This document shows, piece by piece, positions 14,994 through 30,020 of a stretch of 64,000 bases of DNA. The notes beneath the pieces are model-generated. The model made no database searches. It was not told the origin of the DNA and was given only the letters and a program-made list of their open reading frames with translations. This stretch comes from Pelagibacteraceae bacterium AG-390-L03 (GTDB taxonomy: Bacteria > Pseudomonadota > Alphaproteobacteria > Pelagibacterales > Pelagibacteraceae). Where the stretch lies: the NCBI GenBank assembly GCA_003279685.1, contig QCHA01000002.1, forward strand, positions 16,303 through 80,302, written 5' to 3'. Each line of letters begins with the position of its first letter. The first letter of the stretch is position 1. The translations under genes were made by a program, and so were the position numbers.

Positions 14994-15464
14994 ATGAGAA
15001 AACTAATAATTATTTTTATAATTTTTACCACACCTTTATTTGCAGCAAAAGTTGAGCGATTAGGTTTTTATAATATACAAGAGCTTCTTGAAGACGACAA
15101 TTTAACCTACAAAATTATTAAAAGTTGTGTTTCTTTAAATTCTGCAATAACAGAAATAACAAGAGAAGATCATCCAGAATTATCAAAGAGTTTTTTTGCA
15201 ACAGCTAATTACTTGTATCCATTTGGCATTCTCACTTTAGCAAAAATAAAAAAAATGAATTATCAAGATGTAGAAAAAGAATACCAAAACAGTGTGGGCA
15301 CTCAGGTATCTGATTATATGGATTTTATGAAAGAAAATGGAGTTGCCAATCAAAGCTTTATAAAGGGAACTTTTATTGGAGATGATCTAAATTTTTGTAA
15401 TGAAATTAGATCAGCAATTGAAATAACCATTGCAGAGACTAAAAAATTAAAATCAAAAGACTAA
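14994..15464 (+). CDS. Hypothetical exported protein
   Basis: 156 aa, N-terminal signal-like segment (PLFA/A), two Cys; no family recognised. Confidence 0.6.
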   Translation: MRKLIIIFIIFTTPLFAAKVERLGFYNIQELLEDDNLTYKIIKSCVSLNSAITEITREDHPELSKSFFATANYLYPFGILTLAKIKKMNYQDVEKEYQNSVGTQVSDYMDFMKENGVANQSFIKGTFIGDDLNFCNEIRSAIEITIAETKKLKSKD

Positions 15465-15470
15465 ATTAAA

Positions 15471-15785
15471 TTATTCAGATTTTTTTTTAAATTTTGGAAT
15501 TTTAGATTTTTTTTTCTCTTTTTTCTTAAATTTGGGAATTTTAGATTTTTTAGAGTCTTTTTTACCTTTAGTTTCCTCTACAGCATATTCTTCTAAAGCA
15601 GGCATAATTTCTTTACAATTTTCTAAAGTACAAAAATATGTTGCGCCTGTTTTATTGTTATATAGATAAGCTCCACAATTATTTTGTTTTTTTAAAGTAC
15701 AATTGGCCGGCTCTAAAATATAATCTGCGAAAACTCTTGAGGGGACTAGAAGGATAAAAATAAAAATAAAAATAAATTTTTTCAT
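15471..15785 (-). CDS. Hypothetical exported protein with four Cys and a duplicated Lys-rich tail
   Basis: Signal peptide (VFA/D), four Cys, KKSKIPKFKKK present twice at the C-terminus. Confidence 0.6.
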   Translation of the reverse strand: MKKFIFIFIFILLVPSRVFADYILEPANCTLKKQNNCGAYLYNNKTGATYFCTLENCKEIMPALEEYAVEETKGKKDSKKSKIPKFKKKEKKKSKIPKFKKKSE

Positions 15786-16003
15786 ATAAAAATTATTTTG
15801 TGTTAAAAAATAATTTTATTCAACTCTTAATAGAATATTTTTTTAACATATACTTAATCTAATTTAGATCATTTTTTGCATATAAAACAAACGAAAATTT
15901 AACCTATAAAAATTATATATAAAAATTAGCAATATTTAAATCGTAGAAAAAATTTTTCTTACATGAGAAAGTAACATTATTAATATTAATAAAGGAGGGG
16001 TAC

Positions 16004-17206
16004 ATGAAAATAACTAAAATGATCTATGTTATTATGTTTTCTTCACTTCTTGGAATATTTAGCACAGCAAATTCAGGTGAATTGTGCACAGAGTGTCTAA
16101 AAAAAGTTCCACAAGAAATGAGAGACTATGTTTATAACATGGACTTTATGGATAAAGACCAACCTTTAGGACCTGCGGTAATGAAAGGATGGAAAAGTCC
16201 TAGAAAACCACCGTGGACTATTGGTTACGCTAGTACGTATGCTGGAAACACTTGGAGAAAAGGTGCAATGGAAAGATTAATGGAAGTTGTATATCCTAAG
16301 TGGAAAGCACTAGGAATGGTTGATGAGATTGTAATTACTCAATCAAACTTAGATGACTCATTACAAATTCAGCAAATGAGACAAATGATAGATGGGGGTA
16401 AAGTTGATGCAATTATTATATGTTGCTCTAATATAACTGCTCTTAACACTACTATTAAGTATGGTTGGGAAAAAGGTATACCTACATTATCATTTACAGG
16501 CTTTACAACATCTCCGTATTCAATCAACACATCTGTTAATTACAGATTAGTTGGTTACTATGTAGGTGCATGGATGGCTGAGCTTATTGGAGAAAAAGGT
16601 AATGTTATAGTTATCGAAGGAATACCAGGTTATTCTGCTTCAGACCAACAAAACAAAGGGGTACTAGCTGCGTTGTCAGAATTCCCTGATGTAAACGTTG
16701 TTGGACAACTAGCACATAACTGGACTTCGCAAGTTGCTCAAAAAGAACTGTCACAATGGTTATCAACAAATACAAAAAAAGTTGATGGTATTGCTGTTCA
16801 ATCTTCAGGAGAAACTGGAACTTTGCAGGCCCTACTTCAGTCTGGACTTGATCCAATTCCACCAATTGCATTAGGAGGAGAACTTGGTGCATTATGTTAT
16901 TGGAGACAAAACCCAGGATATATTGATGAAGCAATATATGCATGGCCTCCGGGAGATGAAGTTGAGCTAGGTATGGATGTAATGATTAGAACTTTGCAAG
17001 GTCAAAGTCCTATGATTCAGTCTATATTAGTTGGTCCAGCTACGAAAAATTTCGATGAAATCAGTGAAATCTTAAATGAAGATTGTGATCGAAATTCTAC
17101 TGGTTGGGATAATCCTGGAATGGACAAATGGGCTCCTAAAGAATACGTAGAAGCATTCTTTGAGAATCCAAGCGATCCTACAAAATACGATCCAAAATCT
17201 CACTAA
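16004..17206 (+). CDS. Ribose/sugar-type (Peripla_BP_4-like) ABC substrate-binding protein
   Basis: Signal peptide, AAGGAGGGG RBS, WTIGYASTYAGNTWR, GKVDAIII, GNVIVIEGIPG. Confidence 0.8.
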   Translation: MKITKMIYVIMFSSLLGIFSTANSGELCTECLKKVPQEMRDYVYNMDFMDKDQPLGPAVMKGWKSPRKPPWTIGYASTYAGNTWRKGAMERLMEVVYPKWKALGMVDEIVITQSNLDDSLQIQQMRQMIDGGKVDAIIICCSNITALNTTIKYGWEKGIPTLSFTGFTTSPYSINTSVNYRLVGYYVGAWMAELIGEKGNVIVIEGIPGYSASDQQNKGVLAALSEFPDVNVVGQLAHNWTSQVAQKELSQWLSTNTKKVDGIAVQSSGETGTLQALLQSGLDPIPPIALGGELGALCYWRQNPGYIDEAIYAWPPGDEVELGMDVMIRTLQGQSPMIQSILVGPATKNFDEISEILNEDCDRNSTGWDNPGMDKWAPKEYVEAFFENPSDPTKYDPKSH

Positions 17207-17221
17207 TACTTATAACTAAGT

Positions 17222-18967
17222 ATGAGTGCTGAAAAAAATATAGAAGACAACACCTCTAAAGAGGTGTTGTCTGAGAAGTCAAAAACTGTCCAAGGTGATA
17301 TTTATGTCCAAGATGTTCACAAATATTTTGGTGTGACCAAAGCCTTGAACGGAGTAAATTTCAATGCAAATTTTGGTGAAATTCATGCAATTGTTGGAGG
17401 AAATGGCTGTGGCAAAAGCACATTGGCAAAAACAATGTCTGGAGTTTTGCCAGTAGATAAAGGTAAAGTTTCAATACTTGGTCAAACTCCTACTTCCCCT
17501 GTAATGGCGAGAAACATGGGAATTGCAACAGTTTTTCAAGAAGTAATGATAGCTGAAGAGTCATCAGTAGTAGACAACTTATTTGTTGGCTCAGATGATT
17601 TTTGGTACAAAAATTTAACCCAAAGAGAAAAAGTGCTTAAAGCTCAAGAAATTATGGAAGATCTTGTTGGTGAATACGTTGATCCATATACGCAGGCATT
17701 TAATTTATCACTTCCCATAAAAGCATGGATAACAATTGCTAGAGCTTTCTTGAGAGATAATACAAAAGTATTAATTCTAGATGAGTCATCAGCTGCTCTT
17801 GATTTTGATTCCACTGAAAGATTATTTAAAAAAATGAGAGAGTTACGTGACAAAGGAGTTGCAATTTTCATTGTTACTCACCGAATTGCTGAGCTAGTAC
17901 GAATAAGTGATAAAGCAACTGTTATGAGAGATGGTAAAGATGTAGGGGTGTTAGAAAAAAAAGATCTTAATGAAAAAAATTTAATAGGCTTAATGACTGG
18001 TAGAGAAGAAACAGGAGAAAAATCCACTTCAATAGCTATGCAAACTAAAACAGATAAAGTTGTAATGAGAGCAGAAAATTTAATTGTTTGGCCAGACAGC
18101 AAACCTATCAATTTTGAAGTCAAAAAAGGAGAAATTGTAGGCATAACAGGTCTTGATGGTAATGGACAAGATGACTTTGTTAAGATTTTAGCAGGTGTAC
18201 AAGAATCTCATGGTGGGACTATTGAAATTTTAGACTCAAATGAAAAATTTTTAAAATATAATTCTTTAGAAAGTGCAAAAGAAAATGGAATATCATTTGT
18301 TTCTGGTGATCGAAAAAAAGAAGGAATACTTCCTAACTTAAGTATTTATGAAAATTTAGTTGTACCTCTTTACAAAAAAACTAGCAGAGCAGGATTTTTA
18401 GGTTTTATTAACTGGATGGAACTGAATGGAATTTATGATTGGGAAGTAGAAAGATTAAATATTAAAACTGGCCCAAGTGATAATCTAATTGGTTCACTAA
18501 GTGGAGGAAATCAACAAAAAGTAATGATAGCAAGATCATTTGCACAGCATCCAAAAGTTCTTATTTTAAATGATCCAGCAAGAGGCATAGATATAAGCAC
18601 TAAAAGAGACCTGTATGTTCATTTAAGAAAATATGTTGAAGAAGGTAACACAGTTGTTTTTTTATCAAGTGAACTAGAAGAATTTATTGGGCTATGTCCA
18701 AAAGTTATAGTTTTTAGAAATGGGACAATATTTGATATTTTTGAAAATGATAAAATTAATGCTGATACTTTACTTGAAGGAATGTTTGGTCAAACCGCTG
18801 GGGTTGGTGAAACAACTATTTCAGCTAAACCTAATGTTTCAGCAATAATAAAAAATAAAGCTGAAAATAAAACCGAACCTGAAGGAAGAAAGATTGTAAA
18901 AATAGTAAATTTTGATGATGAAAATAACAATAAGAATAATAATAAAATAAAAGTTAAAACTTTTTGA
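17222..18967 (+). CDS. CUT2 sugar ABC ATP-binding protein (two ABC domains) with a low-complexity C-terminal tail
   Basis: GGNGCGKS, LILDESS, LSGGNQQK, LNDPARGID; about 55 extra C-terminal residues. Confidence 0.88.
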   Translation: MSAEKNIEDNTSKEVLSEKSKTVQGDIYVQDVHKYFGVTKALNGVNFNANFGEIHAIVGGNGCGKSTLAKTMSGVLPVDKGKVSILGQTPTSPVMARNMGIATVFQEVMIAEESSVVDNLFVGSDDFWYKNLTQREKVLKAQEIMEDLVGEYVDPYTQAFNLSLPIKAWITIARAFLRDNTKVLILDESSAALDFDSTERLFKKMRELRDKGVAIFIVTHRIAELVRISDKATVMRDGKDVGVLEKKDLNEKNLIGLMTGREETGEKSTSIAMQTKTDKVVMRAENLIVWPDSKPINFEVKKGEIVGITGLDGNGQDDFVKILAGVQESHGGTIEILDSNEKFLKYNSLESAKENGISFVSGDRKKEGILPNLSIYENLVVPLYKKTSRAGFLGFINWMELNGIYDWEVERLNIKTGPSDNLIGSLSGGNQQKVMIARSFAQHPKVLILNDPARGIDISTKRDLYVHLRKYVEEGNTVVFLSSELEEFIGLCPKVIVFRNGTIFDIFENDKINADTLLEGMFGQTAGVGETTISAKPNVSAIIKNKAENKTEPEGRKIVKIVNFDDENNNKNNNKIKVKTF

Positions 18968-19476
18968 TGAAAACAGAGAATAAACATAAATATTATAATG
19001 ATGAAGATGAAATAAATTTTGAAAAATTAAATAATTTTAGAAAATTTAATTCTAACCTTAAAAATAATATTCAATCAAATAATCATATTATTAAGTATGC
19101 TAATTCTGATAAAAATTATTTTAATAATATTTTAAAGATTGATCAAAAAGCCACTAAATATAATGAAAATGATAAGGAAAAAGAGATAAACTATTATAGC
19201 CTATCAGACTTTCAAAAATTTGATCAACTAGATAGTTTTTCTGAACATAATAATACAGAAAAAATACAAAAAAAAATTAATCTCAAATCAAACTATTCAT
19301 CTAAAGACCATGAAGAGTTTAATAAAATAATTCCAAAAAGAAATTCAGATCAAGAAAAAAATAACGAACTAAACGAAAAAATTAGAGTAATTGATTACAG
19401 TAAAATAAATGAGAATGAAAAAAAACTTAAAAATAAATTTGGGATTGATAAAATAAAAGTAGTTTATTTTGATTAA
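18964..19476 (+). CDS. Orphan N/K/E-rich protein with four ~33-aa-periodic repeats
   Basis: Start overlaps the ATPase stop (ATGA); Y-x3-D-x3-F-x2-[IL] at aa 11, 45, 78, 111; fills the gap inside a tight operon. Confidence 0.7.
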   Translation: MMKTENKHKYYNDEDEINFEKLNNFRKFNSNLKNNIQSNNHIIKYANSDKNYFNNILKIDQKATKYNENDKEKEINYYSLSDFQKFDQLDSFSEHNNTEKIQKKINLKSNYSSKDHEEFNKIIPKRNSDQEKNNELNEKIRVIDYSKINENEKKLKNKFGIDKIKVVYFD

Positions 19477-19481
19477 AAAAA

Positions 19482-21806
19482 ATGGAAATAATTGAAAAGT
19501 TAAAAACTTATAGATCTAGTGTAGATACTTCTTCAAATAAGTATCTAATGGTGCCCATTTTTATTTTTTTTGCTTTATTAATTTTTGCTTTAATTAGAAG
19601 TCCAATACTTATCTCACAATCAGGCATAGGAAGTGCGATAATGCTTACTGCTCCTTTAATTTTAACCACTTACGCTCTAACATTTATAGCTATGGCCGGA
19701 AGAGGTGGGGTTGATTTGTCTATTGGTCCTTTCATGGGTTTTATAAATGTAAGTAGTATTCAACTATATGCTGCTGGATATTTACAAACTCCAATTGGCT
19801 GGTTTGTTTATGCAATAGCAATGGGATTAATTTGGCAGCTTTTCTATGCTTTAATAGTTTGTTTTGTAAGAGTTTCACCAATAATTGTATCTCTAGCTGG
19901 ATATTTAGCATTTGCTGGAATAAATATCGTAATTTTACCAAGACCAGGTGGAATAGCTCCGGACTGGCTGCTTCCATGGGGAGAAGGATTTACAATTCTA
20001 AACCCTATATTTCTTCTAATGATATTGGCGACAATATTATTTTATATAATTACTCATACGGCTTTTTGGGGTCATCTAAAATTAATGGGTTCAGATGAAC
20101 GTGCAGCTTTTACAAGTGGTGTAAAAATTCACCTTGTAAGAATAGTTGCTCATATGATAGCAGGAATTTTTGCAGCTCTTTCTGCAATATGTTTTACGGC
20201 TCTTGTTGGATCTGGAGACCCACTACAAGGAACTAAATACACATTACTAGGTATTACTGCATTAGTTCTAGGTGGCGCAAGTTTGGCTGGTGGGCGTGGA
20301 GGTGCGTTTGGAGCAATTTTAGGTGCATTAAACTTATACCTTATAAATTATATCTTGGTTACTTTTAGATTTGAAAGACTTCAAAGTTTTGTTTCGGACT
20401 TATCTTATGGAGCAGTTTTGGTTATAGCATTATTAGTTAGTCTTATTCTTCCTTATGTCACAAGAGTAACAAAGGGTTTATCGGTAATGGTTTTTTTCAT
20501 TTTAATGGCATTTGCAGGATTATTTGTGGTATTACATCAAGTGTATGATCAACCAATTATTATAGAGAAAGTAGTTGAAACTGATGAAAAATCTCAAAAT
20601 GATGTAAGAGGATCAAAAGTAAGAAAAGTAGATTCAACAGGAAATATTATAGTTGAGGACTCTGAAGCTGGGGCAACAACAGGAACTGGTACTGCTAAAG
20701 GTGGCTCGTTGGCAGGTCATGGCGTAGTTCAACTCACTGAAACACCAGGAACTATAGTGTTTTATGTAATTTTAGGAATAGCATTCGTTGCTTTGTTGCT
20801 TTACCTATTGTCAGCCCATAGAAATCCATCCACGATTTCTTTTGTAATTATCGTAGTCATAATGGCAGCTGGTTTAATTTTTGACCCCGACGATAAAGAA
20901 AAAGACATATTAAAAGATACAGAAAAAATAACTTTAAACTCTAAACAAGTAAGTAGTATTGAAACTTCTGCTCCTCAATACTTTAGCTTGGAAAAAATAA
21001 ACTACTTCCCAAATGTTCTTGAGAGTTCTCTTATTTCTGGAACTACTTATAGTATTATTTATTTTGCTGGAATTGTTTTGTTGGCATCTCTAATTGTAAT
21101 ATCAATGCTTCCTCAATTTAGTCCACGTACTAAATCTACAGCGCTTTTATTTTTTCTAGCAGCTATATCTTTAATTGTTTTAAAAGGTGTTTCATATAAT
21201 AATTTAGTTGAAAGCACTGATAGTAGCTTTTTTGGCATTCAGGGATATGGGGTAATACTAGTTGTTTTACTTTTATTTGTTATAACGGCTCCATTTGTTC
21301 ATTCAAAAATAAAAAACTTAACTAATGTATATATATTTGGATTTGGTATTCTTGCAATAATTTGTACTTATTTTATTGGTGGTAATACTTTTGTTCTAAA
21401 TGATCCATCTTTTTATCAACCTAAAATAATAAGTGAATTAAATATCGGAGATCTTTCTCAAATTAAATACGAAGGGACAAAAAGATTTTTTTATGAAACT
21501 GCAACTTCAGGATATTCTCAATTTGCCTTTAGTATTCTAGCGGTATTTTTAGTCCAATATTTTTTATTCCTTAATATGGGTGAGAAAGCAAATTATAAAA
21601 GATTTGCTCCATATATTTACATAGTAACTATTGCTGTAGCACTTTGGGCTTCAATATTTTATTCTGTAGGATATTCATTATATAAAATTCTTGCAGTATT
21701 AGTAATTGGAATACCTATTACACCTTTGGTTTGGCAATTTATGTCTATCTATAAAGAAAAAAATGCACGTGATAAACAATTAAGTCAATGGGAGGAAATA
21801 AAGTAG
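19482..21806 (+). CDS. CUT2 ABC permease with a ~430-aa multi-TM C-terminal extension
   Basis: GGVDLSIG, HLKLMGSDERAAFTSG, VLGGASLAGGRG in the first ~340 aa, then several additional hydrophobic hairpins. Confidence 0.8.
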   Translation: MEIIEKLKTYRSSVDTSSNKYLMVPIFIFFALLIFALIRSPILISQSGIGSAIMLTAPLILTTYALTFIAMAGRGGVDLSIGPFMGFINVSSIQLYAAGYLQTPIGWFVYAIAMGLIWQLFYALIVCFVRVSPIIVSLAGYLAFAGINIVILPRPGGIAPDWLLPWGEGFTILNPIFLLMILATILFYIITHTAFWGHLKLMGSDERAAFTSGVKIHLVRIVAHMIAGIFAALSAICFTALVGSGDPLQGTKYTLLGITALVLGGASLAGGRGGAFGAILGALNLYLINYILVTFRFERLQSFVSDLSYGAVLVIALLVSLILPYVTRVTKGLSVMVFFILMAFAGLFVVLHQVYDQPIIIEKVVETDEKSQNDVRGSKVRKVDSTGNIIVEDSEAGATTGTGTAKGGSLAGHGVVQLTETPGTIVFYVILGIAFVALLLYLLSAHRNPSTISFVIIVVIMAAGLIFDPDDKEKDILKDTEKITLNSKQVSSIETSAPQYFSLEKINYFPNVLESSLISGTTYSIIYFAGIVLLASLIVISMLPQFSPRTKSTALLFFLAAISLIVLKGVSYNNLVESTDSSFFGIQGYGVILVVLLLFVITAPFVHSKIKNLTNVYIFGFGILAIICTYFIGGNTFVLNDPSFYQPKIISELNIGDLSQIKYEGTKRFFYETATSGYSQFAFSILAVFLVQYFLFLNMGEKANYKRFAPYIYIVTIAVALWASIFYSVGYSLYKILAVLVIGIPITPLVWQFMSIYKEKNARDKQLSQWEEIK

Positions 21807-23207
21807 ATGAAAAAATCAGCATTTCTTTTTTTTAAAGGACTAGGATTATTATTTGCAATTCTTTGTGGAATAGGAACTGCTTTTCTTGGTTGGTATGATG
21901 GCGCAGATTGGATGAATATTGCTACCTACTCTATTGCTGTAACTGGATTAATATTGTGGGGATGGTACCATTTTTCTGTAAGATGGATTAATGAAGATTT
22001 AAAACAAAATATCTTCACTAAATTTCCTAAAGAAGAAATTATAAAAGACGAAGAAGATGAAGAAAATTTTTTCTTCAAAAATATTAGAGAAAATAAATGG
22101 AAAACAATTGCTTTCCTTGGGGTAATTCTAATCTTTATTTTTGTATCTTTTGTAGCAGATGATTTCTTTTCAGGAAGAACCCTAGTTTCATTTTTGATCT
22201 TTTTAGTATTTGTGATTTTTATGGGTATTATCAGCAGATACATAAAAGGTTCAAAAAGTGTTTTTGTAGGGATCTCTGTGTTGATTGGATTGTTTATTAT
22301 TGGATCTCTAACCATACCTGGTTTCTTAACAACCATGAACATGAAATCAATGTTGGTTTTCGCATCATTTTTAGGACTAGCTACTATTGGTCAGACTTTT
22401 GTTGCACTTTTAGGGGGTTTAGATCTTTCAATTCCATTTGTTATTGGCTCTATGAATGTTGGTTTAATGTCGTTAATTTCAAAAGGAGTTCCACCCTGGT
22501 TAGCATGCATAGTAATATTATTGCTAGGAGCTTTAATTGGATTTGTTAATGGAACTCTGAGTTTTAGGCTTCAGGGACAAGCATTAATTTTAACCTTAGG
22601 TGTCGGATTTTTTGTTAAAGGAGGAGTTCAAATTTTAGTCTCTATGGGAACTTTCTCAGCAGGTACAGTTTTTGGTGTAGTACCAGATTGGATGCAAAAT
22701 TTGGCCTCTATGGGAGGAAAAACTATTGGTCTTCCAATACCTCCTGTGATCATTATTTGGATAGTTGCAAGTATATTAGTTATTGTTGCACTTAGATTAA
22801 CAAAATGGGGAAGGCATTTATATGCTTTAGGTGGAAGTAGATTGTCATCATCAAGACTTTCTATTTCTGAAAGAGGATACTGGGTTGGTGCTTATGTTAT
22901 TAGTGGATTTTTCTCAGCTTTAACTGGAATTCTACTTCTTGGTTGGAGTGGTGGAGGATATGTAGGTGCTGGAGATATTTATTTATTCACAACTATAGCT
23001 GCAGTGGTTATTGGTGGAACTTCATTATTAGGAGGTTCTGGAGGTTATGGGTTAAGTGTTATTGGAGTATTTATATTACAAATAATAACAACTGTATTAA
23101 TTGGATGGGGTTTAAGTTGGGAAGCACAACAATTTATTTTAGGATTACTTATTATTCCAATGGTTGCCCTATACGCAAGATCCCCACATATAAGAAGCCA
23201 GATATAA
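21807..23207 (+). CDS. CUT2 ABC permease with a ~150-aa N-terminal TM extension
   Basis: GGLDLSIP, WGRHLYALGGS, VVIGGTSLLGGSG; extra N-terminal helices and acidic linker. Confidence 0.82.
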   Translation: MKKSAFLFFKGLGLLFAILCGIGTAFLGWYDGADWMNIATYSIAVTGLILWGWYHFSVRWINEDLKQNIFTKFPKEEIIKDEEDEENFFFKNIRENKWKTIAFLGVILIFIFVSFVADDFFSGRTLVSFLIFLVFVIFMGIISRYIKGSKSVFVGISVLIGLFIIGSLTIPGFLTTMNMKSMLVFASFLGLATIGQTFVALLGGLDLSIPFVIGSMNVGLMSLISKGVPPWLACIVILLLGALIGFVNGTLSFRLQGQALILTLGVGFFVKGGVQILVSMGTFSAGTVFGVVPDWMQNLASMGGKTIGLPIPPVIIIWIVASILVIVALRLTKWGRHLYALGGSRLSSSRLSISERGYWVGAYVISGFFSALTGILLLGWSGGGYVGAGDIYLFTTIAAVVIGGTSLLGGSGGYGLSVIGVFILQIITTVLIGWGLSWEAQQFILGLLIIPMVALYARSPHIRSQI

Positions 23208-23219
23208 AGGAGAAGATTT

Positions 23220-23939
23220 ATGATAGAATTAAATTGCGATATGGGTGAAAGTTTTGGGATCTATAAAGCGGGTAATGATGAAGAGATAATGCCATTAATA
23301 GATATAGCAAATGTTGCCTGTGGGTTTCATGCTTCTGATCCTAATCATATGAGAAAAACTGTGGCACTTGCAAAAAAACATGGGGTAAAAGTTGGTGCTC
23401 ACCCTTCTTTTTCTGATCTGCAGGGATTTGGAAGAAGAGAAATAAAAATGCCAAGACAAGATATAAAAAATATGGTTATGTATCAGGTAGGTGCTTTAAA
23501 ATCATTTTTAGATGAACAAGATATGCCTTTGAACCATATCAAACCTCATGGATCATTATATGTTATGGCTGCGAAAGATGAAAATATGGCTAACGCAATT
23601 GCAGATGCTGTTGAAACTTTTAATGTGAGTATTTTTGGAATGGCAAATACTTGTCATGAAAAGGTTTATAAAGATGAAAGAGGTTTAAATTTTATAGCAG
23701 AATTTTATGCTGACCTAGATTATGATAAAGAAGGAAACCTAGTTGTAGCTAAAGGAAAAAATGCTAACTACGATAGTAAAATTGCAGCCAAACGTGTCAT
23801 GCGTGCATTAAAAGAAAAAAAAGTTACCAATACTATTGGTAAAGATATAAATGTTGGTTGTGATACAATTTGCGTTCATTCAGATACACCTAATGCAGTT
23901 GAAATAATTACAGGTATTAAATCAGCTCTTAGTAAATGA
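23220..23939 (+). CDS. pxpA: LamB/YcsF family protein (5-oxoprolinase subunit A-like)
   Basis: LNCDMGESFG, ANVACGFHASDP, GAHPS, HIKPHGSLY, TICVHSDTP. Confidence 0.92.
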   Translation: MIELNCDMGESFGIYKAGNDEEIMPLIDIANVACGFHASDPNHMRKTVALAKKHGVKVGAHPSFSDLQGFGRREIKMPRQDIKNMVMYQVGALKSFLDEQDMPLNHIKPHGSLYVMAAKDENMANAIADAVETFNVSIFGMANTCHEKVYKDERGLNFIAEFYADLDYDKEGNLVVAKGKNANYDSKIAAKRVMRALKEKKVTNTIGKDINVGCDTICVHSDTPNAVEIITGIKSALSK

Positions 23940-26389
23940 AAAGAATTTTAATAGCTAACAGAGGTGAAATAGCTTGTAGAATTATTAAAAGCTGTAAAAA
24001 ACTAGGTATACAGTCAATTGCTGTATATTCAGATATAGACAAAAACAGCAAACACGTTAGAGAAGCTGACGAGTCAATCCACATAGGGGGGTCAAAAGCA
24101 CAAGAAAGTTACCTTTTCGCAGAAAAAATCATTGAGGTTGCTAAAAAACTAAATGCTGATGCTATTCATCCAGGATATGGATTTATGGCCGAAAATGCTG
24201 AATTTGCCCAGAATGTAATAGACTCAGGGATAATTTGGATAGGCCCAAAACCAAGCACTATCATATCAATGGGTAATAAAGATGTAGCAAGAGATTTGGC
24301 TATAAAAAATAACCTTCCTATTTGCCCAGGGTTAAAAGATGAAGATTTAAAAAAAGATGATCTAGAAAATAAATGTAATGAAATTGGTTATCCAATTTTA
24401 ATAAAGGCAAGTGCTGGTGGTGGTGGAATTGGAATGCGAATAGCAAACAATTATGAGGAATTAATTCAATCAATTGAAAAAACTAAAAATTTAGCAAAAA
24501 AAGCATTTGGTAATAGCGATATTTTTTTAGAAAAATTTATTTCAAATGCAAGGCATATAGAAATTCAAGTTTTTGGTCTTGGTGAAAGAAAAGCTTTGCA
24601 TTTCTACGAAAGAGATTGCTCAATACAAAGACGCTTTCAAAAAATTATAGAAGAAAGTCCCGCTCCTGAGATTAAAGACTCAATAATTAATGAGATGGCA
24701 GAAAGTGCAGTAAATTTTGTTACAAATCAAAAATATGAAGGAGCTGGTACAATAGAATTTATATACGACATTGATAATAAAAAATTTTATTTTTTAGAAA
24801 TGAATACTAGAATTCAAGTAGAGCACCCTGTTACAGAGATGATCACAAATTCTGATTTAGTTTCAATGCAAATCCAATTTGCATTAAACCTAGATCTACA
24901 ATCTATAGAACAAAATAAAATTAATAAATCAGGACATGCTATTGAATGTAGATTATATGCTGAAGACCCAGCTAAAAACTTTCTTCCTTCTCCAGGTAAA
25001 ATTACTAAATTAAATCTTCCTAATACTGGTTTTGTAGATATTAGACTTGATATAGGTGTAGATGAAGGAGATGAGATATCTTTTTATTATGATCCAATGA
25101 TTGCAAAAATTATTTCAAAAAGTGAAAATAGAATAGAAAGTATAAATAATATGATTCATTATTTAAGTGAATTAAAAATAGAAGGAATTAATACAAATAA
25201 ATCTTTTTTAATTTCAGTTTTAAAAAATGAGTCTTTTGAAAAAGCAACTTATAATACTAAATTTATAGAAAATAATTTATCTTTATTTACAAAAGAATCA
25301 GAAACTTTAAAAAAAAATATAAGTAAAACTATTAATGAAGAAAATATTGTTCAAAAATATACTGATAAAGATGTTGAGGCTTTTAAAAAAATCACAGCAC
25401 AATCTCCTAATAAAAAACACTCAGACCACTACACTGAAAATGATTTCAAAGCATTTAAGAATATTTTAAATAAAAAAAATGATAATCAAAAAAAAGGTTC
25501 TATTAAAAATATAATAGGAAAAGTATATGAAGAACCATTATTTAAACCAGGAGGTGACAAATATATGGTCATTGAATTTGGTAATCTTATGGATCTAGAA
25601 ATTAACTTTACAGCACAAAACTTAGCTAAAGCTATTCTTGATAATAAAATCAAAGGTATTTATGAAACTGCTCCATGTTTTGCTTCGATGCTTATTCATT
25701 ATAATCCTGATGAAATAAAATTTAATGATTTAAAAAATGAGATGAAGTCACTTATTAAGTCATTAGGTCCAACTGATGATATTGAGATTAATAGTAGAAT
25801 TTTCTCATTTCCCACTGTTTATTTAGATAAATGGACAAAAGAATGTATTGAAGATTATTCAAGCAAAATTGTAGAAAAAACTCCTGATCCTGATTTTATT
25901 GTAGAGCTAAATAAACTTGAAAATACTGAACAATTTGTAAGGGTTCATTCTGGAACTGAATATTGGGTTTCGGCACTAGGTTTTTGGCCAGGTCTTCCAT
26001 TTATGATGCCTTTAGACCCTAGATGTAAATTAACTGCACCAAAATATAATCCACCAAGAACCTGGACCCCAAAAGGTGCCGTAGGAATGGGTGGATCTTC
26101 AACTTCAATATATCCTGATAGATTGCCTGGTGGTTATCAAATTTTTGGAATAATACCTGTTCCTATTTGGGATACTCAGAAAAGTTTTTCTGTATTTGAA
26201 GAAAGTATCTGTCTTTTTAAACCTGGTGACAGAGTAAAATTTGTACCCACAAGCTACGAAGAATTTGATCATGTTTCGAATAAGGTAAAGGACAAATCCT
26301 ATGATTATAATATTATTGACTATCAAAAATTTTCAGTAAAAAATTATAAAAATTGGTTAACAACAATTGATAAAACAAAAAGATTTTAA
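23936..26389 (+). CDS. Biotin carboxylase fused to a carboxyltransferase C/D (PxpB/AHS1-like) domain
   Basis: ANRGEIACR, HPGYGF, GGGGIGM, ERDCSIQRR, EMNTRIQVEHPVTE, YYDPMIAK; ~70-aa linker; then GFWPGLPF, PKYNPPRTWTP, PGGYQIFG. Confidence 0.88.
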   Translation: MKRILIANRGEIACRIIKSCKKLGIQSIAVYSDIDKNSKHVREADESIHIGGSKAQESYLFAEKIIEVAKKLNADAIHPGYGFMAENAEFAQNVIDSGIIWIGPKPSTIISMGNKDVARDLAIKNNLPICPGLKDEDLKKDDLENKCNEIGYPILIKASAGGGGIGMRIANNYEELIQSIEKTKNLAKKAFGNSDIFLEKFISNARHIEIQVFGLGERKALHFYERDCSIQRRFQKIIEESPAPEIKDSIINEMAESAVNFVTNQKYEGAGTIEFIYDIDNKKFYFLEMNTRIQVEHPVTEMITNSDLVSMQIQFALNLDLQSIEQNKINKSGHAIECRLYAEDPAKNFLPSPGKITKLNLPNTGFVDIRLDIGVDEGDEISFYYDPMIAKIISKSENRIESINNMIHYLSELKIEGINTNKSFLISVLKNESFEKATYNTKFIENNLSLFTKESETLKKNISKTINEENIVQKYTDKDVEAFKKITAQSPNKKHSDHYTENDFKAFKNILNKKNDNQKKGSIKNIIGKVYEEPLFKPGGDKYMVIEFGNLMDLEINFTAQNLAKAILDNKIKGIYETAPCFASMLIHYNPDEIKFNDLKNEMKSLIKSLGPTDDIEINSRIFSFPTVYLDKWTKECIEDYSSKIVEKTPDPDFIVELNKLENTEQFVRVHSGTEYWVSALGFWPGLPFMMPLDPRCKLTAPKYNPPRTWTPKGAVGMGGSSTSIYPDRLPGGYQIFGIIPVPIWDTQKSFSVFEESICLFKPGDRVKFVPTSYEEFDHVSNKVKDKSYDYNIIDYQKFSVKNYKNWLTTIDKTKRF

Positions 26390-26394
26390 CTTTT

Positions 26395-27519
26395 ATGGTT
26401 CAGGTAATTAAAAAAGGTTTAGAAACATCAGTCCAAGATTATCCTGGAAGAATTGGAACTTTAAATCAAGGATTTCCAGCCTCAGGTCCAATGGATAGTT
26501 GGTCTTTTAGACTTGCAAATATATTGGTTGGAAATAAGCCTGGTGACGCAGCACTAGAGTGTCAATTTATGGGACCAACTCTTAAATTTATTGATGATAG
26601 AACAATAGCTATTACAGGTGCAGACATGTCTCCAAAAATAGATGGTAAAAGTGTTCCTTTATGGGAGAGTATTGAAGTTAAAGCAAATCAAGTTTTAGAA
26701 TTAGAATTTGCCACAATAGGTGCAAGATCATATATTGCTTTTGCTGGAGGAATTAATAGTGAACCTTGGCTTGGATCGAAATCTACATTTCATAAAGCTG
26801 GGGTAGGCGGAATTGATGGTAAAGCTATTGAAAATAATCAAATTCTGCCACTAGGAAACAATAAAAAAATTCAGTTTAGAAAAATAAAAAAAAGTTCAAT
26901 ACCCGAAATCTCTAAAGATAAAAATTGGTCTATAGAAGTTGTTTTAGGTCCCAACGATGATTGGATAGATGACAAAGGTCATGAGATTTTTTTTAATTCT
27001 AAATGGAAACTTCAAGCAAAAAGTGATCGGACAGGGTATAGATTAGATGGACCTAAACTATCTTTCACTGATAAGGCTACAAACAAAAGCCTTGAAAATG
27101 GTTCGGAACCTTCAAATATTATTGACCAGGGCTATCCTGCAGGAGCAATTAATCTTGCAGGTCAAACCCCAATTATTCTTGTTAATGATGGACCAAGCAT
27201 GGGTGGTTTTATTAACCCGTATACTGTGCCATCAGCAACTTTTTGGAAATTAGGACAAGCTAAACCAGGAGATATTCTCAATTTTATAGAAGTTTCAGTT
27301 GAAAAAGCTCAAACATTAAGAGCTGAACAGTCAATCATTTGTAGCGAAGAAAGCCTTATATCTTTTAATAAGAATGAAACTATCAAAAATGAAAAAAACA
27401 AACAATTAGACCCAATAAAGATAATAGATTTTGATAAAAATAAGACGGAGGAGAAAAAAAGAGTAAAATTGATGGAAAAAAAAGGCATGAAAAATATGAA
27501 AATTCGGTTTTTTAATTAA
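26395..27519 (+). CDS. pxpC: Carboxyltransferase A/B (PxpC/AHS2-like) subunit with a charged C-terminal tail
   Basis: VQDYPGR, SGPMD, GARSYIAFAGG, SDRTGYRL, GQTPIIL, GGF..PYTV. Confidence 0.85.
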   Translation: MVQVIKKGLETSVQDYPGRIGTLNQGFPASGPMDSWSFRLANILVGNKPGDAALECQFMGPTLKFIDDRTIAITGADMSPKIDGKSVPLWESIEVKANQVLELEFATIGARSYIAFAGGINSEPWLGSKSTFHKAGVGGIDGKAIENNQILPLGNNKKIQFRKIKKSSIPEISKDKNWSIEVVLGPNDDWIDDKGHEIFFNSKWKLQAKSDRTGYRLDGPKLSFTDKATNKSLENGSEPSNIIDQGYPAGAINLAGQTPIILVNDGPSMGGFINPYTVPSATFWKLGQAKPGDILNFIEVSVEKAQTLRAEQSIICSEESLISFNKNETIKNEKNKQLDPIKIIDFDKNKTEEKKRVKLMEKKGMKNMKIRFFN

Positions 27520-27549
27520 TTATTAAATATGAAAGGAATATTTTAGATA

Positions 27550-27768
27550 ATGACAACTGAGGTAAAAACAACAGTTCCGGGTAATATATGGAAAGTACTA
27601 GTTAAAGTAGGAGATATTGTTAAACAAAATGATGACCTTTTCATTATGGAGGTAATGAAAACAGAGGTACATCACAACTCGCCTATTGATGGAAAAGTTA
27701 TACAAGTAAATATTCAAAATGACCAAGAAGCAGTTGAGCCTGGTACAGTTGCGATTATCATTGAATAA
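27550..27768 (+). CDS. Stand-alone biotin carboxyl carrier protein
   Basis: 72 aa; PG.IWKVLVKVGD and EVMKT (biotinyl-Lys in MK), SPIDG. Confidence 0.85.
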   Translation: MTTEVKTTVPGNIWKVLVKVGDIVKQNDDLFIMEVMKTEVHHNSPIDGKVIQVNIQNDQEAVEPGTVAIIIE

Positions 27769-27771
27769 CAT

Positions 27772-27981
27772 ATGAAATCTAAAAAAAAATTTATTACTAA
27801 ATATTTAGATACTATAATTGAACTATCAAATGAAACTGGGATTTCAAAAAAAGAAGTAAGAACAATCCTAGATATAACATTATCTAATCAAAATCCTGAG
27901 TTTGTTAATTTTGAACTAATAAAAACTGAAATAAAAACATTCATTACAATTAATATTTTTTCGCTAGTGTGTAAATTATAG
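27772..27981 (+). CDS. Small hypothetical protein
   Basis: 69 aa, ATG 3 nt after the BCCP stop; no family recognised. Confidence 0.5.
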   Translation: MKSKKKFITKYLDTIIELSNETGISKKEVRTILDITLSNQNPEFVNFELIKTEIKTFITINIFSLVCKL

Positions 27982-28008
27982 AGTGATAAAAAAATATAAT
28001 TTTTTAAA

Positions 28009-28845
28009 TTAATCGTAATAAAACATTGGAGCTTTTTTCCAATCTAACCATGTAACAGGGTCATGTCCCCAAACTACTTTAGCATTATAATCTTTGGCAA
28101 CTTTTCTTAATTTTTTAACAGAGTCAGCCGCATCTGAAGCAGAAGCAACAAGTCCAGGCAGACATTTATCACACCAATGATCTCCTGTATAACATGCGTC
28201 TCCAGTAAATAACATATGTCCAGTTTTTGGTAAATTTACAAGAACCGATTGATGACCAGGAGTATGTCCAGGAGTAAATATTATTTTAATAACACCATCT
28301 CCAAAGACATCATAAAAATCTGTTTTTCTTCCCTGTAAAAATTTCCATCTTATATTTGGTTTATCAAAATCTGCTCTTACATAAGCTGGTTGTGAAAACC
28401 AGTCTGGATTGAATGCATAATCGTATTCTACTCTTTGTGTAATATGTGTTGCATTAGGAAAGTGACCAATTGCTCCTGAATGATCAAGATGTAAGTGAGT
28501 TTGAATAACATATTTAACATCCTCTGGGTTTGTGTTTACAGATTTAACTACTTCTTTGCACCACTCTGAAGCTTTCATCACAGGATCATAAGCCTCAACA
28601 ACATTTCCCCAATGTTTATGTTTGTCTAGAGCTGCCTCAATTGGCATTCCTCCATCAATAATAACATCTCCTTCAGGATGTTTAATTAAAAACCAAGGTA
28701 CAGGAATTTCATAAGCTTCTTCACCTTGATTCATCTTTATGAATTTCAATTTAGTTTTTATAGAACCAGTTTGAAACATATATAGTTTAATTCCACTATT
28801 AAACTTTGTTGTTTTTTCAAAAAAGTCATCAGAAATATTATTCAT
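28009..28845 (-). CDS. attM: AttM/AiiB-type lactonase (metallo-beta-lactamase fold)
   Basis: HLHLDH, TPGHTPGH, GDACY, GHD; also KMNQG..YEIPVP, PDWF, DFDKP and KKAP features recalled from AttM/BlcC. Confidence 0.85.
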   Translation of the reverse strand: MNNISDDFFEKTTKFNSGIKLYMFQTGSIKTKLKFIKMNQGEEAYEIPVPWFLIKHPEGDVIIDGGMPIEAALDKHKHWGNVVEAYDPVMKASEWCKEVVKSVNTNPEDVKYVIQTHLHLDHSGAIGHFPNATHITQRVEYDYAFNPDWFSQPAYVRADFDKPNIRWKFLQGRKTDFYDVFGDGVIKIIFTPGHTPGHQSVLVNLPKTGHMLFTGDACYTGDHWCDKCLPGLVASASDAADSVKKLRKVAKDYNAKVVWGHDPVTWLDWKKAPMFYYD

Positions 28846-28853
28846 ACTTTATT

Positions 28854-30020
28854 CTACCAGGCTGCCTCATATATGTTAAGAGCGTCATTTTCAGTCAGTT
28901 CTCTTGGGTTATTCACTAATAAACGAGTTTGTTTCATTGCATCTGATGCCATTTTTTTACATGCCTCTTTTGGAATATTTACCTCTCTTAATCTTTGAGG
29001 AAGTCCAATTTTTTGTGACAAACTCTCTAATCGATCAATAAATTCTTTGCATACTGCTTGGCTCCCCTTTTCAGTGTTAATATCTTGGAAAACAAATGGG
29101 GCTAATTCAGCATAATTTTTTGTTGTTTTGCTATCTACACTATTAAATCTTAAAACGTATGGAAGAACTAAAGAGTTTGACAATCCATGAGACACATGAA
29201 AAGTTCCTCCAATCGGATAGGCAAGAGCATGGACTGCTGCAACAGGAGAATTAGCAAATGCTTTCCCAGCTAACATTGCTCCAATTAACATGTTGCCTCT
29301 AGCCTCAATATTCGAACCATCAAATACAGCTTTTTCTATTGAACCCGACAAAAGTTTTAGTGCTTCGATAGCTAACATTTTTGAAATTGGATTATTATTT
29401 TTGTTTGATGAAGTATAACCCTCTATAGCATGAACCATAGCGTCAATTCCTGTAGCTGCTGTTGTGTGTGCTGGTAATCCAATTGTTAAATCTGGATCTA
29501 AAATTGCAATATCAGGTAAAATTATTGGCGAAGAAACTCCTTTCTTTTCTTCATCTCCAACTGTTATGATAGATATAGGAGTTACCTCCGAGCCTGTTCC
29601 AGCTGTAGTCGGTATTAAAATTAATGGTAATCTTGGACCTTTAGCATTAGAAACACCCCAGGCGTCTTCAATATTTTCATTTGAACCTAAAATTAAAGAA
29701 GTTAATTTAGCTACATCCATTGAAGATCCTCCCCCAAATCCAATAACACCTGTAGCATTAATTTTTTTTCCAACTTCTATAGAGTGTAGAAGTGTTTTAA
29801 TTGAAGGATCTGCTTCTACATCTTGAAAAACTTCAACTATTGATGAATATTTATTTAGTTCAGTTAGAGTTGGTTCAGTTAAATTTAAAGACATCAACCC
29901 TTTATCAGTTATAAATAAAACATTTGGTCCCAGTTTTTTTGAAATTTCTTCAACACATATTTTAGACATTCCACTTCCAAATCTAATTCCTGAAGTAGTA
30001 TTAAATGTAAAATTATTCAT
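28854..30020 (-). CDS. Iron-containing alcohol dehydrogenase (AttL/BlcB-like)
   Basis: GGGSSMDVAK, PTTAGTGSEVT, GIDAMVHAIE, AVHALAYP, HGLSN. Confidence 0.88.
   Translation of the reverse strand: MNNFTFNTTSGIRFGSGMSKICVEEISKKLGPNVLFITDKGLMSLNLTEPTLTELNKYSSIVEVFQDVEADPSIKTLLHSIEVGKKINATGVIGFGGGSSMDVAKLTSLILGSNENIEDAWGVSNAKGPRLPLILIPTTAGTGSEVTPISIITVGDEEKKGVSSPIILPDIAILDPDLTIGLPAHTTAATGIDAMVHAIEGYTSSNKNNNPISKMLAIEALKLLSGSIEKAVFDGSNIEARGNMLIGAMLAGKAFANSPVAAVHALAYPIGGTFHVSHGLSNSLVLPYVLRFNSVDSKTTKNYAELAPFVFQDINTEKGSQAVCKEFIDRLESLSQKIGLPQRLREVNIPKEACKKMASDAMKQTRLLVNNPRELTENDALNIYEAAW

Follow-up and report, generated by a model that had tools for sequence, protein, structure and literature searches.

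A fused biotin carboxylase-carboxyltransferase encoded with a PxpA-type hydrolase and an ABC importer in a SAR11 genome

Enzyme genes of the locus

The window analyzed here is a 64,000-nucleotide stretch of the SAR11 genome Pelagibacteraceae bacterium AG-390-L03 (contig QCHA01000002.1, positions 16,303 to 80,302 of the forward strand), an assembly of 1.35 Mb with approximately 30% G+C and 93% completeness. Positions 23220-27768 of the window constitute the enzyme half of an eleven-gene operon, the other half of which is a CUT2-type ABC importer. The enzyme half encodes a PxpA-type hydrolase, a fusion of biotin carboxylase (BC) to the C/D part of a carboxyltransferase (CT), a separate CT(A/B) protein and a small biotin carboxyl carrier protein (BCCP), and together these proteins may open an imported amide or lactam in a biotin-dependent manner. 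The original prediction for this DNA was of a split, domain-permuted urea-carboxylase-like enzyme paired with PxpA in place of allophanate hydrolase. Its four open reading frames (ORFs) were recovered on the + strand at exactly the predicted positions, and the GGGGIGM, PKYNPPRTWTP and EVMKT motifs that it named are each present in the translations. The genes and their parts are as follows.

23220..23939, + strand: PxpA (LamB/YcsF) hydrolase paralogue, 239 aa; LamB_YcsF at 307.6 bits and the NCBIfam PxpA subfamily model NF003814 at 282 bits (cut-off 226)
23936..26389, + strand: fusion protein, 817 aa, consisting of BC, linker and CT(C/D); Biotin_carb_N, CPSase_L_D2 and Biotin_carb_C at aa 2-445, CT_C_D at aa 536-749
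23936..25273, + strand: BC domain of the fusion (aa 1-446), with the GGGGIGM loop at aa 161-167 (24416-24436)
25274..25525, + strand: low-complexity linker of the fusion rich in K, N and E (aa 447-530, 84 aa), with the conserved motifs YTDKDVEAFKKI (25358-25393) and YTENDFKAFKNI (25430-25465)
25526..26389, + strand: CT(C/D) part of the fusion (aa 531-817), with PKYNPPRTWTP at aa 702-712 (26039-26071)
26395..27519, + strand: CT(A/B) protein, 374 aa; CT_A_B at 288.5 bits; a C-terminal tail of approximately 55 aa carries the bipartite tag IKIIDFDK...MKIRFFN
27550..27768, + strand: stand-alone BCCP, 72 aa; Biotin_lipoyl, with the biotinyl Lys37 in EVMKT (27658-27660)

All five components of a recurrent gene module, namely PxpA, BC, a CT(C/D) of the long type, CT(A/B) and a small BCCP, are co-located in the window. 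The BC domain of the fusion shares 45% identity with AccC of the same genome, and its translation contains the IKA lysine, RHIE, QKIIEE, GAGTIEF, LEMNTRIQVEH and ECRLYAE, which we take to be the motifs that are catalytic in Escherichia coli AccC. The GGGGIGM loop resembles the loops of urea-carboxylase-like (UC-like) proteins and was found in 31 of the 40 BCs from related clusters; the AccC of this genome has GGGGKGM. Similarly, EVMKT or EVMKM was found in 26 of 31 cluster BCCPs. An AlphaFold2 prediction of the 817-aa fusion from a 17-sequence alignment reached a mean predicted local distance difference test score (pLDDT) of 41.6, too poor for use, and hints only at short helices over both linker motifs.

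Integrity of the fusion gene

The fusion ORF ends in TAA, and a gap of 5 nt (26390-26394) separates it from the CT(A/B) gene. The concern that the break between 26389 and 26395 might be an assembly artefact was checked and proved unfounded. Five further SAR11 assemblies, each independent and derived from single cells or metagenomes, keep the stop; their spacers measure 2-8 nt and the flanking sequences have diverged. Since the stop is shared by six independent assemblies and unfused relatives encode C/D and A/B separately, the break is real. The ratio of nonsynonymous to synonymous substitution rates (dN/dS) between SAR11 copies was 0.07-0.17 for BC and 0.02-0.12 for CT(C/D). The linker is under relaxed constraint (0.14-0.83), yet two Y[ST][DE]KD.KAF.NI motifs are retained within it. 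The conserved junction and the dN/dS values rule out an assembly artefact or a pseudogene, and the fusion and its neighbors are, as judged from these sequence comparisons, working genes and not a decaying fusion. The fusion shows that BC and CT(C/D) act within a single complex, and the fused form offers a simpler three-chain system for reconstitution.

Relatives, gene order and distribution

In order to place the module among its relatives, 185,579 species genomes were scanned with the CT(C/D) part (as a five-sequence alignment), which yielded 80 loci that were annotated by BLASTP against the proteins of the window. An unfused cluster of PxpA, BC (approximately 453 aa), CT(C/D) (approximately 289 aa), CT(A/B) (approximately 322 aa) and BCCP (72 aa) is present in many Alpha- and Gammaproteobacteria, including Inquilinus, Enhydrobacter aerosaccus, Acidisoma, Colwellia, Arenicellales and Pseudohongiellaceae, the CT(C/D) of these carriers being 58-70% identical to that of the window. 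The usual order is a binding protein, an ATPase and a permease of the same ABC type followed by PxpA-BC-CT(C/D)-CT(A/B)-BCCP, and orthologues of the binding protein lie upstream of the cluster in 15 loci. Two loci, from Arenicellales and Pseudohongiellaceae (L029, L030), are rearranged to binding protein-CT(C/D)-CT(A/B)-BCCP-BioY, with ATPase-permease-PxpA-BC approximately 2 kb further on.

Genes found near the clusters include BioY (10 loci, often following BCCP), a LysR regulator (8 loci), a glutathione S-transferase-like (GST-like) gene (10 loci) and a Gfo/Idh/MocA oxidoreductase (4 loci). With the biotinyl lysine and the BC motifs intact and BioY linked in those 10 loci, the module is predicted to depend on biotin. 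Of the 80 loci, approximately 60 have a PxpA homologue within the fetched stretch; for the window's own clade the count is 30 of 36. Remoter versions occur in Actinobacteria, Chloroflexi-like lineages (Thermomicrobia) and archaea; for example, TRD_RS12635-12665 on the megaplasmid of Thermomicrobium roseum encode a binding protein, a sugar ABC ATPase, a permease, BCCP, CT(C/D), CT(A/B), PxpA and BioY under generic annotation. Pairing with PxpA is not unusual and is the rule for the multi-subunit UC-like family across phyla.

Within SAR11 the module is accessory, and only a subset of the group carries the operon. The fusion was present in 3 of 37 species genomes of the same genus, and an orthologue at no less than 58% identity was present in 5 of 300 evenly sampled alphaproteobacterial genomes, while fused proteins of 811-817 aa are common in marine metagenomes. 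A check for BC-CT(C/D) fusions elsewhere gave a single other one (79% identical, SAR11-like) among the 150 best 50%-identity representatives, and the other long matches were urea carboxylases or fragments of these.

Tandem CT(C/D)-CT(A/B) pairs, up to two in a row, were observed in several alphaproteobacterial metagenome genomes (L069, L071-L075, L077), which form a sister clade of the window's group. BC, BCCP and PxpA were not found within 8 kb of these tandem pairs.

Origin of the fusion

A CT(C/D) tree of 157 sequences placed canonical short PxpB as the outgroup and UC-like proteins in a clade of their own. The clade that contains the window is supported (SH-aLRT 96) and comprises 40 sequences; for 34 of these, a BC gene, a BCCP gene or both lie in the fetched stretch. 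Six fused SAR11 sequences (SH-aLRT 99) are nested among unfused ones, and their sister group consists of marine alphaproteobacterial single-cell genomes that encode a separate 500-aa BC and 420-aa CT(C/D). The topology of the BC tree agrees with that of the CT(C/D) tree, and the cluster BCs stand apart from the AccC of the genome and from the BC domains of urea carboxylase. As the fused forms nest inside unfused forms in both trees, the fusion is a derived join of neighboring genes.

The CT(C/D) proteins of the sister clade have an extra N-terminal 130 aa that is of low complexity and contains Y-D-F-like motifs, so that the SAR11 linker corresponds to this extension joined to BC. The linker had been thought to occupy the place of CT(A/B), and the match to the unfused sister-clade extension contradicts this. 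The description of the enzyme as domain-permuted does not stand either, since members of a widespread multi-subunit family normally have their genes in the order BC, CT(C/D), CT(A/B), BCCP. Canonical operons have pxpB before pxpC, i.e. C/D before A/B. Dozens of proteobacterial clusters show C/D before A/B in unfused form, and this arrangement is therefore not a permutation. A permuted urea carboxylase is ruled out by the gene order of the unfused relatives together with the trees.

Relationship to urea and guanidine carboxylases

The CT(A/B) protein scored 217 bits against residues 479-815 of Kluyveromyces lactis urea carboxylase (KlUC, 3VA7) versus 133 bits against E. coli YbgK/PxpC, and CT(C/D) scored 99 bits against KlUC versus 64 bits against PxpB. 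The CT active-site residues of KlUC, which Fan et al. are said to have identified in 2012, are reportedly Asp1584, Lys1605 and Tyr1628. Equivalents of Lys1605 and Tyr1628 are kept in the CT(C/D) of the window, and in canonical PxpB the Lys position is occupied by Arg. Asp1584 sits in a 'GLGD' insert that is limited to a KlUC-like subset of UC-like sequences and is missing from the whole window clade. Among NCBIfam models, the urea carboxylase model TIGR02712 is the best for three of the four proteins, with 725, 304 and 45 bits, all far under its cut-off of 1303.85. Urea carboxylase (EC 6.3.4.6) is a single chain of approximately 1200 aa in the order BC-CT(A/B)-CT(C/D)-BCCP, while the window encodes three chains.

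Partner enzymes of urea and guanidine carboxylases were also sought. Allophanate hydrolase (AtzF) was not found in the window or in the 93%-complete genome, whose sole amidase-signature gene is GatA (604.9 bits, cut-off 481). A linked CgdAB (DUF1989) pair was likewise not found in the genome. The single DUF1989 domain detected belongs to a 756-aa ORF on another contig (C7:45052-47319) that has no linked carboxylase and whose C-terminal part, by eye, is presumably GcvT-type aminomethyltransferase-like. The predicted absence of AtzF and CgdAB is confirmed for the window and extends to the genome, and the core of the original prediction, a biotin-dependent enzyme of the urea carboxylase family with PxpA instead of allophanate hydrolase or CgdAB, is borne out by domains, motifs and partner searches.

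A split urea or guanidine carboxylase, with PxpA or an unlinked enzyme hydrolysing its product, would account for the rank of TIGR02712, for the UC-type GGGGIGM and EVMKT and for the retained KlUC catalytic Lys and Tyr. It is nevertheless highly improbable in view of the TIGR02712 scores, the missing Asp1584 insert, the lack of allophanate hydrolase and linked CgdAB in the genome, and the position of the clade apart from urea carboxylase in both trees. The operon, moreover, has no urea-type ABC transporter and no riboswitch (zero Rfam matches over 15300-28200).

Relationship to PxpABC-type proteins

The proteins of the window fail the equivalog cut-offs for PxpB (TIGR00370, 85.9 versus 145.55 bits) and PxpC (NF045499, 174.8 versus 500 bits), and the PxpA passes the subfamily model only. 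A canonical pxpC-pxpB pair with a divergent pxpA is also present in the genome, apart from the biotin-linked set (C1:28000-30413), and the genes near it are, from their translations by eye, presumably glycine-cleavage genes. The PxpA of the window is 32% identical to the canonical PxpA of the genome, and the CT halves are 28-30% identical to its PxpB and PxpC.

These comparisons bear on the possibility of a biotin-dependent 5-oxoprolinase, in which the module would act on the same substrate as canonical PxpABC and its own BC and BCCP would supply the ATP-coupled activation. Such an activity would be consistent with the PxpA subfamily score, with a gamma-glutamyltranspeptidase gene beside one orthologous cluster and the GST-like gene beside ten, and with mycobacterial PxpC/PxpB homologues, MSMEG_0435-0436 (Rv0263c-0264c), that physically bind the BCCP-biotin of long-chain acyl-CoA carboxylase. 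A 5-oxoprolinase is nonetheless unlikely, because canonical pxpABC is already in the genome and streamlined SAR11 seldom retains redundant functions, the PxpB and PxpC scores are far under the equivalog cut-offs, and an anionic amino-acid derivative would not usually be expected to enter through a dedicated sugar-type ABC importer. Furthermore, the PxpABC paralogues of Pseudomonas putida take different lactams, with PP_2920-2 genetically required for butyrolactam and PP_4575-7 for 5-oxoproline.

Proposed function

The amide- or lactam-opening role put forward in the original prediction remains the best inference of the chemistry. That PxpA replaces allophanate hydrolase across phyla suggests an activated amide or lactam as the carboxylated intermediate. 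With moderate confidence, the operon enzyme is proposed to be an ATP-, bicarbonate- and biotin-dependent amide or lactam "amidolyase" that would N-carboxylate an imported substrate for subsequent hydrolysis by PxpA. In the predicted sequence of steps, the BC domain would use ATP and bicarbonate to give carboxylated biotin on the free 72-aa BCCP, and CT(C/D), tethered to BC, would form with CT(A/B) the carboxyltransferase that moves CO2 to a nitrogen in the amide or lactam group of a small molecule taken up by the importer. Cleavage of the activated N-carboxy amide by the metal hydrolase of the PxpA/LamB type would follow, and the resulting carbamate would shed CO2 spontaneously. The net reaction would convert a stable amide or lactam, ATP and H2O into an open amino acid, ADP and Pi, with bicarbonate recycled. 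The proposal is favored by the intact domains and motifs, the CT halves being nearer to KlUC than to PxpC/PxpB, the compact operon, the conserved unfused cluster, the agreement of the two trees, the low dN/dS of the catalytic parts and the separate canonical pxp genes. Published work lends it further support: the P. putida PxpABC paralogues are genetically required for different lactams, the MSMEG_0435-0436 pair clamps the biotin of a BCCP domain, and for caprolactamase a route through carboxyphosphate or a carboxy-lactim has been considered.

Candidate substrates are 2-pyrrolidinone, a 5-oxoproline-like lactam and other small polar cyclic amides. In Aspergillus nidulans, a comparable pair, lamA (UC-like, single chain) and lamB (LamB/YcsF), is needed for the use of 2-pyrrolidinone. 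Given the sugar/polyol-type importer and the Gfo/Idh/MocA gene in some relatives, a polar and possibly hydroxylated cyclic amide is as likely a substrate as 2-pyrrolidinone.

Several points weigh against this assignment. To our knowledge, CTs of this type are known to N-carboxylate only urea and guanidine, and the literature searched held no biochemical study of any member of the biotin-linked module. The binding protein is of the sugar/polyol type, and a Gfo/Idh/MocA oxidoreductase is found in some orthologous clusters. The accepted mechanism of PxpABC is phosphorylation by PxpBC and not carboxylation. Finally, carboxylase activity was not detected for MSMEG_0435-0436, which seem to act by sequestering BCCP.

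Such sequestration raises the question of whether the CT-like proteins of the window are not enzymes but regulators that hold BCCP-biotin, as in mycobacteria, or inhibit a kinase, as KipI/KipA do. This would be very surprising for a CT pair whose own BC, BCCP, hydrolase and importer are encoded in the same operon, whose C/D part is covalently joined to that BC and whose catalytic residues are under strong purifying selection.

The sugar/polyol-type binding protein and transporter, together with the oxidoreductase inside some orthologous operons, would also fit a true carboxylase that converts an imported sugar-like compound into a stable carboxylated product, with PxpA catalyzing a separate deacetylase- or lactamase-type step. 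This is decidedly unlikely. We know of no precedent for C-carboxylation by this CT fold, and PxpA travels with the CT pair across phyla, a co-occurrence that points to consecutive steps on one substrate. If amides are instead opened by the operon enzyme through transient N-carboxylation, as proposed above, this would be a new reaction type for biotin enzymology, and the chemistry of the module might bear on ATP coupling in PxpABC-type 5-oxoprolinases.

Operon layout and importer genes

The eleven + strand genes of the operon (16004-27981) are tightly packed, with spacing that ranges from a 4-nt overlap to a 30-nt gap. A promoter and terminator scan of this AT-rich DNA returned fewer promoter-like sites than were found in shuffles. 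The enzyme genes are flanked in the operon by the following.

16004..17206, + strand: periplasmic substrate-binding protein (Peripla_BP_4, CUT2 type), first gene of the operon; Pfam match of 132.4 bits
17222..18967, + strand: ABC transporter ATPase with two ABC_tran domains and a C-terminal extension that bears the bipartite tag ...IVKIVNFDD...KIKVKTF
18964..19476, + strand: orf170 (170 aa), with four Y-x3-D-x3-F-x2-[IL] repeats and the C-terminal tag IRVIDYSK...KIKVVYFD; no family match
19482..23207, + strand: two BPD_transp_2 permeases of 774 and 466 aa, assigned by family searches
27772..27981, + strand: orf69 (69 aa), a small conserved ORF that starts 3 nt past BCCP; no family match

The binding protein matches sugar binders only weakly, and its nearest solved relatives are the CUT2 binders 4rsm/4rs3 (72 bits). 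Both permeases are oversized in comparison with the 330-340 aa of orthologues in other Proteobacteria. Four other SAR11 loci keep orf170 (45-56% identity), and orf69 is kept in the SAR11 loci L021-L025 (48-97% identity). In other SAR11 and sister-clade loci a GST-like gene follows BCCP and orf69 (L022 10481-12054; L023 10462-11064; L033 10069-10683). L022 also has a Gfo/Idh/MocA oxidoreductase past orf69, and the window and L021 have neither a GST-like nor a Gfo/Idh gene. The small genomes of SAR11 keep few transporters, and an accessory island that couples an importer to an enzyme thus points to a specific dissolved organic nitrogen or carbon compound in the ocean.

Two genes on the - strand (28009-30020) are convergent with the operon and encode an AttM-family lactonase (400.9 bits, cut-off 390) and an Fe-alcohol dehydrogenase. 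Their synteny is kept in the SAR11 loci L022-L025. Among the sampled genomes of the same genus, both genes co-occur with the carboxylase cluster in the two that carry it, and the lactonase is present only in genomes with the cluster. In the sister clade the Fe-alcohol dehydrogenase is separated from the cluster by unrelated genes, including a ParA-like gene, so that a functional link stays a weak hint. The arrangement could reflect an island for lactones and lactams or simply a flexible region held in common.

Terminal tags and repeats

A bipartite C-terminal tail is present on the ABC ATPase (18880-18967), orf170 (19380-19476) and CT(A/B) (27355-27519). It follows the pattern [IV][KR][IV][IV][DN][FY].., a spacer of 12-25 residues rich in K, N and E, and K[IV][KRV].[YFT]F[DN]; in its strict form the pattern matched 2 of 2174 ORFs of the genome. 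In the sister clade (L033, L047) the tail is on the ATPase and the unfused BC instead of CT(A/B), and it was not found in L026, the one distant orthologue checked. A separate repeat, Y-x3-D-x3-F-x2-[ILV], occurs in four copies in orf170 (18964-19476) and in two copies in the BC-CT(C/D) linker (25358-25465), and every other ORF of the genome has at most one. The restriction of these repeats to orf170 and the linker suggests a shared docking or scaffold motif that is specific to the operon. A speculative and rather doubtful extension of the proposed function is that a biotin-dependent "lactam amidolyase" is anchored to the transporter through the tags and repeats, such that an imported amide would be N-carboxylated and hydrolysed on entry in a SAR11 metabolon. 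If true, biotin-driven amide hydrolysis would constitute a new enzyme class, and the union of transporter and enzyme a metabolon of a new kind.

Comparison with known systems

The urea carboxylase of K. lactis (KlUC, 3VA7, 5I8I) contains the same four modules, and no other solved structure is closer to either CT half. The window shares with urea carboxylase the UC-type glycine loop and an AMKT-like biotin motif. In contrast to urea carboxylase, the window distributes its modules over three polypeptides in the order BC-C/D, A/B, BCCP, has PxpA as the partner, lacks the D1584 insert and falls in a separate clade in both trees. The guanidine carboxylase system differs in having adjacent CgdAB and often a guanidine-I riboswitch, neither of which accompanies the operon of the window.

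PxpABC (E. coli YbgJKL; Bacillus subtilis YcsF/KipI/KipA) is built from the same three protein families, and its PxpA subfamily model is matched by the hydrolase of the window. Canonical PxpABC lacks a BC or BCCP of its own. The CT halves of the window are of the long, UC-like type, with Lys where PxpB has Arg. The mycobacterial MSMEG_0435-0436 (PDB 9YX5, 3MML) are likewise a PxpC/PxpB-type pair, but they are distant matches of the window proteins (97.6 and 47 bits), have no dedicated BC or BCCP and are proposed to be a regulator.

The unfused five-gene cluster with its CUT2 importer resembles the window in its orthologous proteins, in its partners and in its type of transporter. It differs in that BC and CT(C/D) are separate and the Y-D-F linker, orf170 and orf69 are missing, and many of its loci encode BioY, LysR, GST-like or Gfo/Idh proteins that are absent from the window. 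Relative to these systems, the gene set itself is known, being widespread and generically annotated, and what is new is the SAR11-specific fusion with its tags and the predicted chemistry.

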